The notes: generated by a model not told the origin, from the sequence alone. DNA of 64,000 nucleotides from Peribolospora baueri (GCA_029717555.1 JAMDHS010000030.1:124001-188000), one strand, 5' to 3'; counted from the stretch's first letter, positions 6,164-18,100 are shown. A program made the numbers and translations.

Positions 6164-9100
6164 ATGGCGTACGTAGCAGTGTGCAAGGTGCTCTACGACT
6201 ATGCCGCCCAGACGGAGGACGAGCTGACGATCTCCGAGGACGACTTGCTGTTCGTGCTCGAGAATGAAGACCCGGAGTGGTGGAAGGCTAAACTCAAGAC
6301 GCCCGGCGACCGGGACGCAGAAGGCGCCGAAGGTCCCACGGGCTTGGTGCCGAGGAACTATGTGGAGGAGGCCGAGCCGCTCAGGGTCAGCAAGGCTTTG
6401 TACGACTACGAGGCGCAGAACGACGAGGAGCTCTCGATTGCAGAGGACGATTTGCTCAACGTGTATGATGTCGATGGGCTCTGGTTGCTTGTGAGGAAGC
6501 ACGGCGCGGACGGGACGGCCGAGGGAAACGCAGGATACGTACCCGCCAACTATGTCGACGAGGTGAGATTGCCCTTCATCGTTTCCGCATGGAAAGCAGA
6601 GCATATTTGACATTCCTTTTTTCCACTTTCACATAGGCCTCGGCGGACGACTCGGAAGCGGCAACGGCCCCTTCCGAGCACGAGGAGGCACCCGCGTCGC
6701 CCATCGCTGTCGCCCCTACCATCCCAGTCATCACCTCTCCACCTCCGAACAATGAGGCGCTCAAGGCGGATGACATTCAGATGTGGCCCGTGTCCGTCAG
6801 TGTCCACGTCCTATAAAATTCCTTTGCCATTGCTCTCTTTCCCGAGTTGACTCCTTTGCTCGTTTCTTTCACGTCACAAAATGTCACAGTTGGTGGATGC
6901 CAAAAAGAAGAAGAAGAAGGGCACGCTCGGCATTGGCAACGGTAGCATTTTCTTTGCAAGCGAGTCCGACAAGGCATGCGTCATCTCTGCCTCGATGTCC
7001 AGCTTGCCGCATTCCTCAGCTGATCTCCTTTCTTAATCTTGCATCGTCCGCGGCCTTCACTAGACGCCCGTCCAGAAGTACCCCGTCGCCTCCGTGACCT
7101 CGCACAACCTTGAAAAGGGCAAGCACCTGCACATCGAGCTCTCCTCCATCTCCGAACCCCTTCACTTCCATACCGGCTCCAAGGACGTGGGCGAGGAGAT
7201 CATTGCAAAGCTAGAGTCGAGCAAGGCTGTCGTCGCCTCCTCTGGCACCGAGACTCTTCCTGCTGAGACTCCCAGGGCGATCCCCCCTCCCCCAGCCGCT
7301 GCATCCTCACCTCCTGCTGCCGTTACTGCGAAGAAGAGCGTCACTTTCTTGCCTCCGCCGTCGCGCCGTTCCGCCAGCTCTTCCAGCGCACCGTCAATGG
7401 ATGAAGAGGAACAGGAGGAGGAAGAGCCAGCTCCCGCCCCCGCTTCTGCGCCCGCCGACGGCGAGACTGGTGAACCTGCTACGGCACTGTATGATTTCGA
7501 GGCGCAGGGAGACGACGAATTGGGCTGCACAGAGGGCGAAGCCATCTGGGTCATCGACCGCGTCAGCAGTGATGACTGGTGGAAGTGCAGGAACGCTTCA
7601 GGGCAGGAGGGCGTTGTACCGGCCAGCTATGTGGAGGTGAGTGTTCGGACTTGTCCCGTTTTGTTGTTCAACCATCGGTATTCATGATTGTAAGTTGCTA
7701 ACTCGGGTCGGGCGTCTCTCCTTCTCAGCTCGCCGATGTGGACGCACCTCCGCCATCAACGGCCGCCGCTGATGAGGCTGCTGAAAGAGAAGCTGCTGGG
7801 GCGGAAGCTGCTGCCGCTGCTGCTGCCGCTGCTGCCGCCGCCGCGGCTGCCGAGGAGAAGAAAGCGCGAGCTGCAGCCGATGCGGAACGGAGACGCAAGG
7901 AGGAGCGAGCAGCCGAGGCGGCCAAGCAAGCGGGGAAGCGTCAGAGGGAGGAAGAGGCACGGCGAAGGAGGGAGAGGGAGGAGGAGGAGGCAAGGCACAA
8001 GGTCGCTGACGAGGTGCGCAAGAACGCCAATGCCTTGCCCTCGCCGCCTGATTTGGATAACAGGCCGAGTTCTCAGGACAGCAAGCGCGCTGGAGAAACA
8101 CAGGCTAGGAGGGGTCATGACAGGTCGAGCTCCGGATCCAAGTCGAGTGAGTTTCTGCGCCGAACGGCATCGAGCTGGCTTATATCGATGTTAATGGTTA
8201 CCGGCTGGCATGATCAATGTCCCATTTTACAGGGCCCAACCCGGCGAAGACGCGCATCTGGCATGACCGCTCGGCTCAGTTCAAAGTTGAGGCAGAATTC
8301 CTCGGCTTCCACCACGGCAAGATCCGACTGCACAAGCTCAACGGCGTTGTCATCGAAGTGCCTGTGGAGAAAATGTCCAACGACGATATCCGGTATATCG
8401 AGAAAGCCACGAGCAGGAAGTTGATGGCCGACGAGCCGCCCTTGTCCCCTTCGCAGGCCAACGCGCTTCGCGCTCAACAGGTTCAGAGCTCGCGTTCTGC
8501 TTCGTCGTCTCAGCGAGACCGTGCTCATCGCGAGCACCATCCTCAGAGGAAGAATGTCGACTGGTTCGAATTCTTCCTCAATGCCGGCTGCGAGATGGAC
8601 GATTGCACGCGGTACGCGGCCGCTTTCGAGCGCGACAAGATGGATGAGACCATCTTGCCGGATGTGGAGCCGTCGGTGCTTCGTTCGCTGGGGCTGCGCG
8701 AAGGTGACATCATCCGCGTGACCAAGCACATCGAGAAGAAGTACGGCGCTTCGAGCAAGCAGAGCGCGAGGGAGCAGAGGGAACAGATGAAACGCGACGA
8801 GGAGCTAGCGCGAAAGTTGCAGGACGAGGAGGCTCGTAGTCCGCCGCCCAATCTTTTCACCAACGCGGACGGCAGTCTCAAGAACCAGAGGAGAGGGCGG
8901 CCCACCACTAACCGGCAGGCCACAACTCCGGTGGATCCTGCGGCGCTCGTGTCCGTCGGAGATCAGCTCAAGAGCACCTCCAGTCCGCCTCCTTCGACCC
9001 CGGCGGCGTCTCCTGCGGTCGCGACTCAGCCTCCGAGGCGCTCCAGCTCGACGGTGCCCGTTGCGAGCGGCTTCGACGATGACGCTTGGACCGTTCGACC

Positions 9101-10436
9101 CAGCTCGCGGACTTCCAAGCCTTCCACTCCAGCCCCGCCTCAGCCTTCTTCTTCCACAGCCGCGGCTCCGACGCCGTCGCCTGCCCCCGCCGCTGCGGCT
9201 GCCATTTCCTCTCCTGCTCCCCCGACGCCGCCGCCGAAAGCGGTGGCGAAGTCACCCGACGAAGCCCTGTTCGAGAAGCTTGCGGCTATGCGCCCGCCGT
9301 CGGCCCCTGCCGTACAGGTGCAGCAGACGGGTATCAATTCGCCTGTTGCCAATGGCGCTTTGTCGCCATCCCCTGTAACGTTCATGAACAACGGCATGGG
9401 AGCCGTTAAGTCGACCGCCTCGCTGTCGGCCCTCCAGGCGCAGCAAACCGGCATGCCAGGCCTCAATCCGAACGCACCCAGAGGACCTTTGGCTCCTGTG
9501 CCCCAGAACCAACCACTCCTGAACCCCCTCGTCCCCACCAACACCGGCATCGGACCTTTCGTTCCTACTCGCACAGGCATCGGCGCGGCACAGCAACAGC
9601 CGCAGCCGACCGGCATGGGCGGAATGAACGTCATGCAGTCGCCTTTCATTTCTGTCTCTTCGCCCATGGGCATGGGCATGACCGGTGCCATGACGGGCAT
9701 CCAGTCGCCCTCTATGCCCGTCTCTTCGCCCATGGGTATGACTGGCGGTGGAATGACCGGGTTCCAGTCTCCGTCCATCTCCGTCTCTTCGCCAATGGTC
9801 ATGGGTATGACCGGCGGCGGCATGGGCGGATCCAGCTTCAATGCTTTTTCCGCCGCTGCTCAGCCCCCTCAACCACCTCAAATGTCCATTGCTGCCCCTC
9901 AGCCGGCCAATTCTCAGTCTGGAGACCAATTCCAGCCTTCTAACGTTTTCGCTCAAGTGAGTGTCATGGGCGTCTTTCTTTCTCAAGAAGTCCTACCTCG
10001 CCCGTTCGGATTCTGAGCCCTTACCTCTCTCGCGAACAGATGAAAACGGGCAACTTTGGAAAAGACCCCAATTCGACCCCACAGAACTCGGACAAGTACG
10101 ACGCCCTGCGACCTCAACCGACCGGTTTCGCGCCCGGCTTCGTGCAGCCACCGGGGCAACAAGGAGGATTCCAACAGCCTCAACCCACCGGATTCGGAGG
10201 GTTCGGGAACGGTATGGGAATGGGCACCGGCATGGGCGTGGCTGGGTTTCCTCAGCAACAGCAAGGCTACGGAGGTCCGATGATGCCTCAACAGACTGGT
10301 TTCCCCATGGCGAACAATTTCCAGCGTCAGGTGAGTTGTTTTGAAGGCTTGAAGTCGTGTTCACCCCCTGTTTGGCCGTTTACTTACCAGCCAATTTCTT
10401 CTTCCCTCCTATGCGGTCGCGCTTCTCCAGTTTTGA
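6164..10436 (+). CDS. SLA1: Actin cytoskeleton/endocytic adaptor Sla1 (3 SH3, SHD1, SAM-like SHD2, C-terminal QxTG repeats)
   Basis: SH3 motifs ALYDY..QxxDEL / EWW / GLVPxNY (three copies), SHD1 RIWHDRSAQFKVEAEFLG...KLNGVVIEVP, SHD2 DWFEFFLNAG, and QQTG/QPTG repeats. Multiple introns, including a GC-AG intron at 6974-7063. Predicted last exon TTT TGA at 10431-10436. Confidence 0.93.
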
Positions 10437-12708: not shown

Positions 12709-13828
12709 GCCGAAGAATACGAATTTAGGGAGACAAAGCTGCTGGACTGGGGAGCGTGAGATGGCCTAGGTTGTGGGGTGGGCTAGTAACGAACGTAAGC
12801 AGAAAAGAGAAGGGAGGGGAAGCGCGTGCGTCGCGGGACAACGAGGATACGTCCTTTTTATCGTTGTCAGGTTCCGTTCGCTGCCATCCTCGTCAGCATG
12901 TCCGGTGTGCAGCCCCAGATGCCGCGGCAAAAGTCCAGGTGAGGTCGCTATAGCCACTGTCTGCCAGTGGCGGTAATGTGCGGAACCTGAACCTGTCAGC
13001 CATAATGTGACAGCTGGAGGGGAGGAGTCCACGACGGAGAGAATGGCCCAACTGGATGAAGATCAACGAAGGGAGAGCGATTGACAGAACACGGACAGCT
13101 TGACGGCCTCCAGCGGTCGGGCCGCTGAGTTGAAAACGGCCGTCGACTCCGGGAGATGCAGATGCGTATCTACGCGAGTCGAACAGGGCCCAGAATCTGT
13201 GGGTAGAGCCGAAAAAAAAACAATGCAAGTCGGTGGAACATTGCAGCAAGCCTCCGCTCCACCTCCAACGCCGACTCTTGAAACCGTCAAGTCGCCATGC
13301 CAAGTGAATGAACGCAAGCCGGAGACTCCGGTCGGACTCGGCTTGCGACCAACGTCCACGGGGGAAGACACCGCAACTCGCTACATCGACGGAGCAAGAT
13401 CGATCTGAAATGGGTTGTGCGGATGGGACGCTCATCCTTTCGGTGCCAGTAGAAGGTCAGGATCAAGTGTCTGTGCATGGAAGAAGAAAGAGGTGGGTGG
13501 TACAGGGCCAAGTCTGCTCGGGCATGCACAATGTCGATCGGCTAAGCGATGCTCCCACTGCGTATCGTGAATGGCCCGCCCTTAGACGGCCTAAGGAACC
13601 AGTTACTCGATTCCCACGATTTACTCAGTTAATAGTCTCTTTAGGTCTCAGTACGCCTGTACGTACACTCTAAACGAATAAATCAACCACTCAAGCAAGC
13701 CACGCCGGGTCACAAGCGAAGCGCAGCCGAAGACATGCTTTATCCGTCCCTTTTAAGGAAATGGTACAATACATCTGATGAGAGAGAACGAACAGTGCGG
13801 ACAAGAACAGGGCCAGAGGCGCGGGGTA

Positions 13829-14776
13829 CTAGCCTCGTTTGAACCTGTGAGAGTGTGGATAGGGAAGATATAAGGTTAACCGACGACCACGAGCACATGA
13901 GAAGTAGACGGTCCACCGCCGACTCACCCTAGCTTCTTTCGTTCATAGAACAGGTCCGTCCGTGATGCCCCAAGGTTGACGACCTGCAAGCATGACGTAA
14001 ACCACACATATCAATGAATTGCGATCTCCCAAGGGGACTGCAAAACAGCGTCGGAGACCAAGGGCATTCGCCACTCAGTGCAGACGAGCGCTTTGAGCGC
14101 CACACCATATCCGGAGAGAGACTTACCTTCGGACACCCGTCTCTATCCTTCTCCAGCCGAACGCACTCAGCGCAGTAGTACGCGTCACTCACTCCTGGAG
14201 AAGCACATAGACAGGGAAGGACGCAAGGACAAGGCAAGCAGCGGACAAGGCAAGCAGCGTGTCCCATCGATTGTCAGCGCCTCGATCAGCTACCGCCTGT
14301 CCTTGAGCACAAACCTGTAGAGTCCACACTCACCTGGGGACCCGCAAATAATGCATCGTCCTCCGTAGGTTCCAAAGTTGCACTCTTCACAGATGCGCAC
14401 GACCGTGTGAGGACGCACTAGCGAGTCACAGATGGGGCTGAAAAACGCGATTGTCAAACGTCGTCCGTTGTGGAGTGGCGCAACGAGAAAAAGGTAAAGG
14501 GCGTTGGGAAAGAGCACAATAAAGACCAACGAAATATCAAAACCTGAACGTGTCTGTCCTCTAACGCCAGAGACACCAGGACTCACCACTTGCCGTCGCA
14601 CTTCTCGCAAAGTCTGCCCACGGCTGGGAAGGGAGGTGAGGAAATTCGGGGTCAGGTTCAGGTCCGTTCGAAAATCCGGTCAGCCAGAGAAAAGCTCGCT
14701 ATGCCACCTGATTCATGCACTTACCAATGCCGGGAAGCTTTCGGCACAGGATCAGGTCCGGATGGTGTTTGGACAT
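13829..14776 (-). CDS. RDS3: SF3b spliceosome subunit Rds3/PHF5A, 110 aa, 6 exons
   Basis: Exons 14776-14725, 14623-14587, 14437-14334, 14194-14127, 13983-13928 and 13844-13829 sum to 333 nt: [52 protein letters not shown]...[43 protein letters not shown]. Confidence 0.97.
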
Positions 14777-14883
14777 GGTGGTGGCGAGCTGGACGACTCC
14801 ACTCCTCGAAGACGGTCGACTTGTTCTTGAGTGATCGACGAAGGTGTCGGCCGAAAGCTGCGGCCGCAGCTGCTCTTGTATGG

Positions 14884-15025
14884 CACGTGACGCGACGCGA
14901 GACGCGCCGACGACCCTTTCCCGTATCTCAACTTCAACTCCAGTCGATCATCATCTGAAAGAACAAGTGGGATCCGAAGACTCCGCGTCGGACAAGGCCC
15001 TGTAGAGGTGGAACGAGTTACGCGA
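14884..15025. promoter_or_regulatory. Divergent RDS3/PACT-gene promoter with a CACGTG E-box and clustered ACGCG (MCB-like) motifs
   Basis: TGGCACGTGACGCGACGCGAGACGCG at 14881-14906, plus CGCGT near 14985 and ACGCG near 15020, all in a ~375-bp intergenic gap. Confidence 0.4.
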
Positions 15026-15152
15026 TGTGAGCGTCTATAGGCTATATTGGTTTTTGCTGTCCGTTCTTCTGAACCTCTTCAACGCTCCCCCGGTCGACCC
15101 GGGTACAGAACACCTCTCTCCGGCCGATCGAGGCTTACGACTGATCGTCGCC

Positions 15153-18100
15153 ATGGTGGTGCACCTATTCGAGTCTCCAGGCACGCTCCGGCGTCGGATG
15201 GATCAGTACGATGTTGAGGCCTCTCAGGACCAAAGCCTTCCTCCGATGCCGATTGACGACGACGAAGACGACAGCAACATGTCTTTTGGCTTCGCGCTCT
15301 CCGCTCGATCAGGCCCTTCGCGCCCTTCGAGCTCCCGACTAGAAGCAACGCCAAAACAGCGTCTCTCGAAGACTGAGGACACGAGCGTTGGTTCGTTTCA
15401 GTCCTCACAGAACAAACCTAGGCGAACCAGGCACTCGTCTGCACCCCCGCCCGAGACTCCGCAGCCGTTCGGCAGACGCTCGCCGTCCTTGCCTCCTGCT
15501 TCTTCATCATCTGCCCCTGAAGTAACACCTATTCCAGCTGCACACATGCCATCGGGAGTGGGCTATGACGAGTCGACAGGTCCAGTTATGTCTACCCCCC
15601 GCAGTCAGATGGACTCCCGACAAACCGTCAGTGCGGACAGGGCAGGTGACGCCTTCGCTACTCCTCAGCCAAGCTCAGGTAGCACAGAGATGGAGCGCCG
15701 AAGAGCACGGCTTATGGAGACGATCAGTAAGCCCACCCCTTTCTCTATTGCCCGAAGACCTCGTTTTACACCTCACCCGCACCCGCGAGACCGGCTGGCA
15801 TCGATTGCAATCGAAGACTTTGGCTCGTTGCGCTCCGAATCCGCCTCGCCCCTTGGTGGTACATCTGGAACGATCGTAAGCGACGGCGAAGGTGACGAGG
15901 CCTCGCTCCTGTCAACGTCCTCCTCCAACGACCTCAGGATGGCCCCTCGTGCTGCGAACACGTCCTTCCCCGTTCTCGGCGCCGACGGCGGCCCACCGGA
16001 GCGATACAACACTGGCAGGCTCAACGTCTTTCTCAATCGTCAAGTCGCCGCCCTGTCTGCTGAGAACAAATCACTCGCTGAGCAGCTCCATGAGGCGCAA
16101 GGTGCTCTTAACGAGGAGAGAGAGCGCAGCGAAAACTTAGGTCGCCAAGTTGGAGCAGGCGCAGCTGAGAACAAGGCTCTCGTCCAGCAGCTCACCGCCA
16201 GCGAAGCCGAGCGGAAGGCGATCGCCGAGCGGCTCAATGAAACGAGGAGCGCTCTCGACGACGAAGCCTCGAAGACTCTTACGCGTCAGCTCGAGGCGAG
16301 CGAAGCGGAAAGCAAGGCACTCGCAGCCGAGAATCGGGATCTCGCCGGACAACTCGAGGCGAGCGAAGCGGAAATCAAGGCACTCGCAGCCGATAATAGG
16401 AATCTTACCGGACGGCTCGAGGCGAGCAAAGCCGAGAACAAGACTCTTGCAGCCGAGAATAGGGCCCTCGCCGAAGAGCTCAAAGCGAGCGAAGCGGAGA
16501 ACAAGGCTCTCGAAACCGAGACTAGGGATCTCGCCGACCAGCTCGACGAGGCGAGGCGCGCGCTCGACAAGGAGGGAGAGCGCTCCGATTCGTTTGCTCG
16601 AGAGGTCGAAGTGAGCGCGGCTGAGAACAAGGCCCTGGCGGACCGGCTTGAATCTCTTGCCGAACAGCTGGAGGCTAGCGAGGAGGAGTCAAAGAAGCTC
16701 AGCGATCAACTCGACCATGCCAGACATGCCCTAGATGAGGAAGGCGCACACGCGGATGGTCTCGCTGGACGACTTGAGGAAGCACAGGACCAAGCGCGGG
16801 AACTTGAGAGCAAAGTGAGAGCACTCGAGAACGAGCTTGAAAGCAGATCCAAAAAGCTCGCGTTCGAGGGCGGCGCAGCCGAGAAGAACAACCTCAAGGC
16901 GGAGAACGCGGCCCTGGAGGACCAACTTGACGAGGCGAGGCGCGCACTTTCGAGAGAGGGCGAGCGCTCCGATTCGCTCGCTCGAGAGGTCGAAGTGAGC
17001 GCGGCTGAGAACAAGGCCCTGGCGAACCGGCTTGAATCTCTTGCCGAACAGCTGGAGGCTAGCGAGGAGGAGTCCAAGAAGCTCAGCGATCAACTCGACC
17101 ATGCCAGACACGCCCTAGATGAGGAAGGCGCACACGCTGATGGTCTCGCTGGACGGCTTGAGGAAGCACAGGACTACGCGCGGGAACTTGAGAGCAAAGT
17201 GAGAGCGCTCGAGAACGAGCTTGAGAGCAGATCCAAAAAGCTCGCATTCGAGGGCGGCTCAGCCGAGAAGAACAAGCTTAAGGCGGAGAACGCGACCCTG
17301 GCGAACCAGCTCGACGAGGCGAGACGCGCTCTCCGGGACGAGGAAAAGCGTTCAGACGCCTTCGCTGCACGGCTGGAGGCGCAGCAGCGGCTCGTAAAGG
17401 TGGGGCCTCTGTCTTCGCATTTGACGGCAAAAAGTATTATCTTGAAATCGGCCTGACGATCGTATTCATGCTCATTAAATAACGCAGGAACTCGAAGCGT
17501 CGCAAGAACAATACAAGGCAGTACGCTCGCGCTTGCTCCACGACCAACAAAAGGAGTTTGACGAACACCTCTGTCAGCTCCATCAGCTTCGCAGCGCCTT
17601 GGCTGCCAAGGACAGAGAGGCCCAAGGTGTCGCTGGTGATCGAGACCGTCTGAAGGCCGAGCGGGCCGGCGTACTGGAGGAGGTAAACAGACTCGAAAGA
17701 GACCTGGACATCGTACGACGCGAGTCGGCACAGTTTGCAGCGACTTTGCAAGTTCTCAAGCATAGGGAGTGGCAAGGCCGGGAGGATGCTCGGTGTCGGG
17801 AGCTAGAGGAGCAAAACAATCTAATCGTCGAGGAGAAAGCTAGCGCTGAAGTGCAGTTGGCGAGGATGGCTAAGCAGCTACAGCAGGTCCAGGAGGACTT
17901 TCACTTTGCCAAAGAGGTTATGGAGAATCATCGCTGTCCGGAGTGAGTCGTCCTCCGGTTCCTTCCCATTCCGGTCCGTCGACATCTTCCTAGTCGCTCA
18001 CATTGCAAGTCTTTTTGCATCGGATTCGCAGCGCCACGGACGGCCTCCTTCAATCTCCAGAAGAGCATCGACAAGAGAGCAAAGCTCTCCTGGTTCGCAT

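Follow-up and report, generated by a model that had tools for sequence, protein, structure and literature searches.

The closest described relatives of the gene considered here are human PHF5A and Rds3 of Saccharomyces cerevisiae (solved structures 5syb, 5o9z, 5ife, 6en4, 5gm6, 2k0a). Y36 of PHF5A was reported to contact the branch adenosine, to form a hydrogen bond with SF3B1 K1071 and to pack on R1075 (Teng 2017, PMC5458519), and the diene tail common to the natural-product splicing inhibitors contacts the same residue (Finci 2018, PMC5859971). According to Teng 2017, replacement of Y36 by F or W gave minor resistance and replacement by C, S or A strong resistance, while the effect of E was near-complete and that of R was milder; in the passages of that paper on position 36, leucine is absent from the residues assayed. 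The authors concluded that an aromatic ring at this position is needed for inhibitor binding, and basal splicing was barely affected by Y36C (PMC5458519). For E7107, resistance was given as 100- to 5000-fold for C, S, A, E and R and as 5- to 10-fold for F and W, and Tyr36 was named among the two positions with the strongest known resistance to SF3b splicing modulators (PMC5859971). An earlier note on the DNA analyzed here had stated that Tyr36 lines the pocket of the branch-point adenosine together with SF3B1 and that Y36C confers resistance to pladienolide and herboxidiene; both statements are borne out by the relevant parts of these two papers (PMC5458519, PMC5859971). Leucine was considered in a computational study of spliceostatin C in an Arabidopsis model, the only paper naming both PHF5A and Y36L that was found in the literature searched. 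Its MM-GBSA values were −63.12 kcal/mol for the wild type, −60.14 for Y36L, −59.18 for R, −55.46 for Y36C, −53.01 for A and −44.78 for E (PMC9878571, Supplementary Table 5).

Efflux pumps and the part of the pocket formed by SF3B1 were also reported to have a strong influence on sensitivity to these inhibitors (PMC12306170, PMC6049509). S. cerevisiae is insensitive despite Tyr36 owing to residues of Hsh155 (PMC6049509, PMC12306170). The PHF5A/Rds3 face is described as the same in yeast and human, and natural insensitivity is attributed to the SF3B1 side (Carrocci 2018, PMC6049509; Hunter 2023, PMC10592967). The insensitivity of S. cerevisiae, Candida albicans and Caenorhabditis elegans provides examples of natural variation in the same composite pocket that decides sensitivity to bacterial inhibitors (PMC6049509, PMC12306170, PMC10592967, PMC6830814). 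Cryptococcus, a basidiomycete whose SF3B1 pocket resembles that of humans, shows natural sensitivity to pladienolide B, with efflux modulating the potency, and the SF3b pocket is under consideration as an antifungal target (PMC12306170). The known resistance mutations of SF3B1 and PHF5A were described in a preprint as occurring only in the heterozygous state, "suggesting recessive lethality" (10.1101/2022.11.13.516350). In C. elegans, His occupies the position of Y36, and it was proposed that H36Y might increase drug sensitivity (Serrat 2019, PMC6830814, Discussion). Whether bacterial inhibitors drive the evolution of the spliceosome was raised as a question by Hunter 2023 (PMC10592967, section 17).

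The window (the whole stretch of DNA analyzed, 64,000 nucleotides in length) contains an intact Rds3/PHF5A gene on the minus strand (13829–14776). It consists of six exons with a total of 333 nt, that is, 110 codons followed by a TAG stop codon, and of five introns of 83 to 149 nt, all of the form GT[AG]AGT...CAG. The exon–intron model is based on homology, and its coordinates are given in Table 1.

Table 1. Exons, introns and codon 36 of the Rds3/PHF5A gene (positions are those of the window).
Feature	Position	Strand	Details
Exon 1	14725..14776	-	ATG at 14776-14774; codons 1-17 and first base of codon 18; donor GTAAGT
Exon 2	14587..14623	-	37 nt; encodes the zinc ligands Cys23, Cys26 and, in part, Cys30; acceptor CAG, donor GTGAGT
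Exon 3	14334..14437	-	104 nt; residues 30-65, codon 36 included
Exon 4	14127..14194	-	68 nt
Exon 5	13928..13983	-	56 nt; followed by GTGAGT, the intron 5 donor with an in-frame TGA
Exon 6	13829..13844	-	16 nt; last base of Gly106, Phe-Lys-Arg-Gly, TAG at 13831-13829; based on homology of the tail
Codon 36	14419..14421	-	CTA, Leu; Tyr36 at the human and yeast position
Introns, span	13845..14724	-	
Intron 1	14724-14624	-	101 nt
Intron 2	14586-14438	-	149 nt
Intron 3	14333-14195	-	139 nt
Intron 4	14126-13984	-	143 nt
Intron 5	13927-13845	-	83 nt

A five-exon model encoding 106 aa was also considered. The TGA stop codon of this model sits within the GTGAGT donor of intron 5, and the model was replaced by the six-exon one. 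With intron 5 spliced out, the protein ends in ...ERKKLGFKRG, and its GFKRG terminus resembles GFKKG, GFRKG and FQRG of the relatives. The length of 110 aa proposed in the earlier note is therefore correct, as is its reading of codon 36 of the spliced minus-strand gene as CTA (Leu), which is confirmed by the alignments and contigs described below. Retention of intron 5, whose donor with the in-frame TGA is at window positions 13922–13927 (minus strand), would result in a 106-aa protein that lacks only the C-terminal FKRG tail.

A search against Pfam assigned the stop-to-stop ORF that contains exon 3 (14290–14679), rather than the joined protein, to the PHF5-like family PF03660 (44.8 bits at a cutoff of 26.7, E = 1.5e-11, profile positions 31–67 of 104). 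Using HMMER, exon 3 was aligned gap-free with residues 32–65 of human PHF5A (E = 3e-13), with Leu opposite Tyr36; it also aligned gap-free with residues 31–62 of yeast Rds3. The window protein thus shares with both described proteins the PF03660 family, the length class and the 12 cysteine residues. The twelve cysteines of the PHF5A family bind zinc at three sites within a knotted fold. All of them are retained in the window protein (positions 11, 23, 26, 30, 33, 46, 49, 58, 61, 72, 75 and 85), and their positions are identical in the proteins of Acaromyces and Sanghuangporus and in another fungal protein. The Acaromyces orthologue aligns with human PHF5A and yeast Rds3 over residues 1–104 of each. 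The window protein is identical to that of Microstroma glucosiphilum, which has Tyr36, in 98 of 110 residues and to that of Acaromyces ingoldii, which has Leu36, in 95 of 104. Judging from these comparisons, the gene is a real and intact member of the Rds3/PHF5A (Ini1) family, encoding an SF3b subunit in a GC-rich basidiomycete.

The tyrosine of the branch-adenosine pocket is replaced by Leu in this protein; Tyr36 is highly conserved but not strictly defining for the family, as His36 of C. elegans demonstrates. In the exon 3 alignment, 9 of the 34 residues differ from human PHF5A, including position 40 (His versus Cys), which varies among fungi. The inhibitor-face residues K25, C26, D27, K29, V37, R38, T41 and S67 are all unchanged. 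Among the inhibitor-face positions named in the papers, differences are thus confined to position 36 and to position 40, which is variable in general. No match to the SF3B1 family was found among the 21 large ORFs of the window scanned with Pfam.

In order to evaluate the reality of Leu36, Logan contigs of four public runs of a single study (X1–X4) were used; these are assembled contigs, in which rare variants drop out, and not raw reads. Runs X1 and X2 (organism A) matched positions 13800–14900 exactly with a word depth of 112 and 91, respectively. Runs X3 and X4 belong to organism B, which is diverged by about 1%: 13 substitutions and 3 indels were found over 1101 bases, none of them at 14419–14421. 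The contigs of all four runs were produced by another assembler and carry CTA (depths of 72–112). In the coding sequence, A and B differ solely by the synonymous change GGC>GGT in codon 16 (position 14729, exon 1). Nine of the 13 substitutions are intronic, two lie upstream of the ATG, one is in exon 1 and the placement of one was not tallied; all three indels are intronic. There is thus one synonymous and no non-synonymous difference in 333 coding nt, whereas the 768 non-coding nt contain 12 substitutions and 3 indels; this contrast fits purifying selection but is not significant alone (Fisher p = 0.12).

The earlier note had cautioned that CTA is a cyclic permutation of TAC and that compensating indels in the assembly might have turned one into the other. 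Apart from this permutation, such an artefact could be suspected because X1 and X2 may represent the source sample itself and are then not fully independent. Nevertheless, CTA is found in the contigs of four runs, two of which are from an organism with 13 other substitutions, and Leu36 is also found in an independent record of Acaromyces and in another record whose PHF5 part is identical. A compensating double indel common to two organisms is very unlikely, the caution is contradicted by these contigs, and we regard the probability of an assembly or sequencing artefact as negligible. None of the three bases of CTA agrees with that of TAC or TAT at the same codon position, and CTA is therefore not a one-step polymorphism; at least three substitutions are needed, via Phe or His intermediates, and both Phe36 and His36 occur in nature. 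Leu36 is real and is fixed in at least two closely related organisms, A and B.

Other features of the locus were observed in the same comparison. Between positions 13800 and 13987, which cover exon 5, intron 5, exon 6 and the 3′ flank, there are no differences between A and B over 188 bases, while 7 substitutions and 2 indels were found in the adjoining intron 4. Intron 3 contains a perfect 16-bp tandem duplication (14227–14259, 2.1 copies); organism B is shorter by exactly 16 bases at this site, and the duplication is therefore a recent indel polymorphism. The divergently transcribed neighbour on the plus strand (15006–17456) is an 816-aa stop-to-stop ORF that is rich in coiled-coil regions. 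It contains a 384-bp unit repeated 2.1 times (16536–17333, 92% matches) and a 63-bp unit repeated 4.1 times (16287–16546), and its sole Pfam matches are weak ones to Cep57/PPC89 and coiled-coil families.

The residue at position 36 was then recorded for 342 homologues from two unbiased lists, one of the homologue queries being a 45-aa in-frame stretch of the window. The first list, from word-indexed searches (110 matches and the best 120 of 1633), contained 207 proteins with the motif, namely 201 with Tyr, 3 with Leu and one each with Phe, His and Met, and none with Trp. The second list, of representatives at 50% identity from the best 150 of 1290 matches, contained 135 additional proteins with the motif, namely 127 with Tyr (including one truncated protein judged by eye), 5 with Leu, 2 with Phe, one with Trp and none with His or Met. 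Together, this gives 328 Tyr, 8 Leu, 3 Phe, 1 His, 1 Met and 1 Trp, so that Tyr36 is present in about 96% of the sampled homologues. The eight Leu36 proteins are those of A. ingoldii and seven of angiosperm type (named records of Theobroma, Gossypium, Cinchona, Oxalis and Salix and two unnamed ones). A. ingoldii is the only named fungus among the retrieved homologues that shares Leu36, and Tyr36 was found in Microstroma, Jaminaea, Sympodiomycopsis, Ustilago, Pseudozyma, Exobasidium, Tilletia and Malassezia. Among the named fungi retrieved, Leu36 is consequently far from common; a wide occurrence in fungi, which the earlier note had named as speaking against its reading, was not seen.

Ten clusters selected for their variants were opened in addition; being a biased set, they were excluded from the frequencies. 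His36 was found there in C. elegans, C. briggsae, C. brenneri and C. tropicalis. The C. elegans PHF-5 protein (NP_001022909.1) resembles the window protein in carrying a natural non-Tyr residue in an otherwise highly conserved orthologue, but His36 is still an aromatic ring, whereas Leu36 is aliphatic. In a cluster of Thalassiosirales diatoms, Phe36 is combined with Asn38; in the centric diatoms Stephanocyclus and Cyclotella (P0410, P0477–P0490), Phe36 and Asn38 in place of Arg38 were seen in all 12 members long enough to show the motif. A record labelled Adiantum nelumboides (P0476, on a 27.8-kb contig) is identical to the Acaromyces PHF5A from residue 4 (His-His-Pro) onwards, Leu36 included, and this protein is probably encoded by DNA of an associated fungus within the fern assembly. 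Metagenome contigs were scanned with a degenerate DNA pattern for P-[IV]-C-D-S-[L/F]-V-R-P-x-x-x-V-R-[IV]-C, and no fungal-type Leu36 was found in them; the single match (L001) has Phe36 (TTT). The latter (L001:700–1250, minus strand) is a divergent GC-rich PHF5-like gene with an extra stretch rich in Ser, Gly and Lys after CDECDYG. No description of a natural Leu36 in fungal PHF5A/Rds3 was found in the literature searched. In the sampled proteins, Leu36 thus appears as a rare state, yet one of several natural non-Tyr exceptions at this position.

The Leu36 gene could be a diverged extra copy, with a canonical Tyr36 gene elsewhere in the genome doing the work, as is perhaps the case for the angiosperm records. 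Of the seven Leu36 proteins of angiosperm type, four have also lost Cys26 (replaced by Asp or His) and carry His38, a divergence that looks like that of paralogues. The window gene, in contrast, is intact, with 12 of 12 cysteines and canonical splice sites, it is 89% identical (98/110) to a Tyr36 orthologue, and the coding difference between A and B is synonymous only. Moreover, in the best 120 matches there was one gene per named species of Ustilaginomycotina, except for Pseudozyma hubeiensis with two records that are possibly one locus, and Acaromyces yielded only its Leu36 protein among the best 120 of 1633 matches. An extra copy is thus considered very improbable. As to the four angiosperm-type proteins (P0382, P0409, P0411 from Salix viminalis and P0112 from Gossypium barbadense), their three changes, at residues 26, 36 and 38, are all on the inhibitor-facing surface, and they could be drug-insensitive paralogues or decaying copies. 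Cys26 of PHF5A is the residue attacked by spliceostatin.

To evaluate the taxonomic position of the window, whose GC content is 59%, two markers were used. The N-terminal signature CRKLPGI is common to the window PHF5A and 16 retrieved proteins, and all of those with a species name belong to Ustilaginomycotina. The SLA1-like ORF at 8214–10016 showed only 38–54% identity to its matches (120 listed). A quick single-gene tree was built from this ORF and 24 of the 120 listed matches, chosen by hand to span the subphyla. In this tree, the window fell outside a well-supported clade of the 7 sampled Ustilaginomycotina, without a clear placement relative to Pucciniomycotina, with the window row being 45% filled and of deviant composition. 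The protein of A. ingoldii annotated as "pre-mRNA splicing factor ini1" (XP_025377273.1) has the same Leu36 motif as the window protein, but its C-terminal tail is different, and judging by the SLA1-like ORF the two organisms are apparently not closely related. Acaromyces is classified within Exobasidiales, and Exobasidium itself has Tyr36. The position in the SLA1 tree and this classification make two origins likely; Leu36 of the window lineage and that of Acaromyces probably arose independently.

All these characteristics (the intact gene, the retained zinc ligands and inhibitor face, and the presence of CTA in two organisms) allow us to propose that the gene encodes a functional SF3b subunit in which the tyrosine of the pocket wall has been replaced by leucine, and for which partial target-site tolerance of SF3b inhibitors is expected; we give this reading a probability of roughly 0.55. 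Leucine would keep the wall hydrophobic, so that the bulged adenosine could still dock and splicing could go on. A pocket that still works is consistent with the mild phenotype of Y36C and the viability of worms with His36. On the other hand, Leu36 would lack both the aromatic ring that packs on the diene tail of pladienolide, herboxidiene and spliceostatin and the hydroxyl group that forms a hydrogen bond with SF3B1 Lys1071; as ring and hydroxyl are lost, the inhibitors should bind more weakly. The expected tolerance would be partial, higher than that of Y36F or Y36W and probably lower than that of Y36C, Y36A or Y36E.

The human allele Y36C affects the same residue and is likewise a change from an aromatic to a non-aromatic side chain (Teng 2017; Finci 2018), so that Leu36 shares the loss of the aromatic side chain with the Y36C-like resistant alleles. 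Y36C arose under drug selection, and such alleles are described in the preprint 10.1101/2022.11.13.516350 as known only in the heterozygous or over-expressed state. Unlike Y36C, Leu36 of the window is the germline state of an apparently ordinary gene, and leucine is larger and more hydrophobic than cysteine. The natural insensitivity of S. cerevisiae, C. albicans and C. elegans resides in HEAT repeats 15–16 of SF3B1 (PMC10592967), whereas the difference in the window protein is on the PHF5A face. Natural drug tolerance due to Leu36 is plausible by analogy with the mutagenesis of other residues. The computed spliceostatin C value for the Arabidopsis model predicts a modest loss of binding. The size of the loss of affinity is uncertain, as the rule that an aromatic residue is required would make it large and the single computed value would make it small.

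Leu36 may instead be effectively neutral, although we consider this rather doubtful: the residue would be tolerated or compensated, and neither the response to inhibitors nor the use of branch sites would change measurably, as could happen where sensitivity is already set by SF3B1 or by efflux. Residues other than Tyr occur naturally at position 36 (His in Caenorhabditis, Phe in diatoms, and in other proteins Leu, Met or Trp), basal splicing is hardly altered by Y36C (PMC5458519), the computed binding of Y36L is only about 3 kcal/mol weaker than that of the wild type (PMC9878571), and the case of S. cerevisiae, with Tyr36 and an insensitivity caused by Hsh155 residues, indicates how the other side of the pocket may prevail (PMC6049509, PMC12306170). 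However, all of the non-aromatic residues reported as assayed (C, S, A, E and R) conferred at least 100-fold resistance (PMC5859971), the aromatic ring is required for binding according to the authors (PMC5458519), and the presence of Tyr in about 96% of the sampled homologues implies that the site is not free to vary.

A change in branch-site selection, towards another branch-point nucleotide or consensus, was considered as well; of the two effects suggested in the earlier note, altered branch-site selectivity and natural resistance to bacterial SF3b inhibitors, it is the one named first. Tyr36 directly contacts the branch adenosine (PMC5458519), and over-expression of Y36C in rice was reported to alter many splicing events (PMC8100303). 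Nevertheless, the five introns of the gene contain ordinary yTnAy motifs, namely, with their distances from the 3′ splice site, CTGAC (28 nt), TTGAC (16 nt), CTGAC (79 nt, followed by an AG-free stretch of 84 nt), TTGAT (27 nt) and TTAAC (31 nt), and the contacts of SF3B1 are described as mostly with the backbone and not base-specific (PMC6049509). Counting of k-mers downstream of the 68 GTRAGT sites of the window gave 22 CTGAC versus 14 and 8 in the controls and 24 CTCAC versus 14 and 6, an underpowered comparison as about 68 such sites are expected by chance, and one that yielded no usable logo. Altered branch-site choice due to Leu36 is unsupported, and we consider it improbable.

Leucine may have become fixed by selection or by drift. 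In an adaptive scenario, yeast-like basidiomycetes living beside Streptomyces, Burkholderia or Pseudomonas that make compounds of the pladienolide or spliceostatin type would have remodelled the PHF5A wall of the branch-adenosine pocket at least twice independently, in the window lineage and in Acaromyces, and some angiosperms maybe likewise, their copies also losing Cys26 and Arg38. We offer this only as a speculative scenario and regard it as unlikely. If it were true, this would be the first natural resistance on the PHF5A side and direct evidence for the idea of Hunter et al. that bacterial splicing inhibitors have shaped eukaryotic spliceosomes.

With Leu36, a new natural variant is added at an established resistance hot-spot of a known protein; natural non-Tyr residues at position 36 are already public (Acaromyces, plants, diatoms), and His36 of C. 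elegans is in print (PMC6830814). Interest in the variant would grow if the Leu36 gene were the sole copy and if a swap of residue 36 shifted inhibitor sensitivity; if leucine had no effect, the rule that an aromatic residue is required would be refined. The variant is a natural test case for the design of species-selective inhibitors, and it bears on whether bacterial splicing inhibitors drive the evolution of the spliceosome (PMC10592967). An ordinary Rds3 gene with an aliphatic residue at position 36 would demonstrate that a fungus can live without the aromatic ring.
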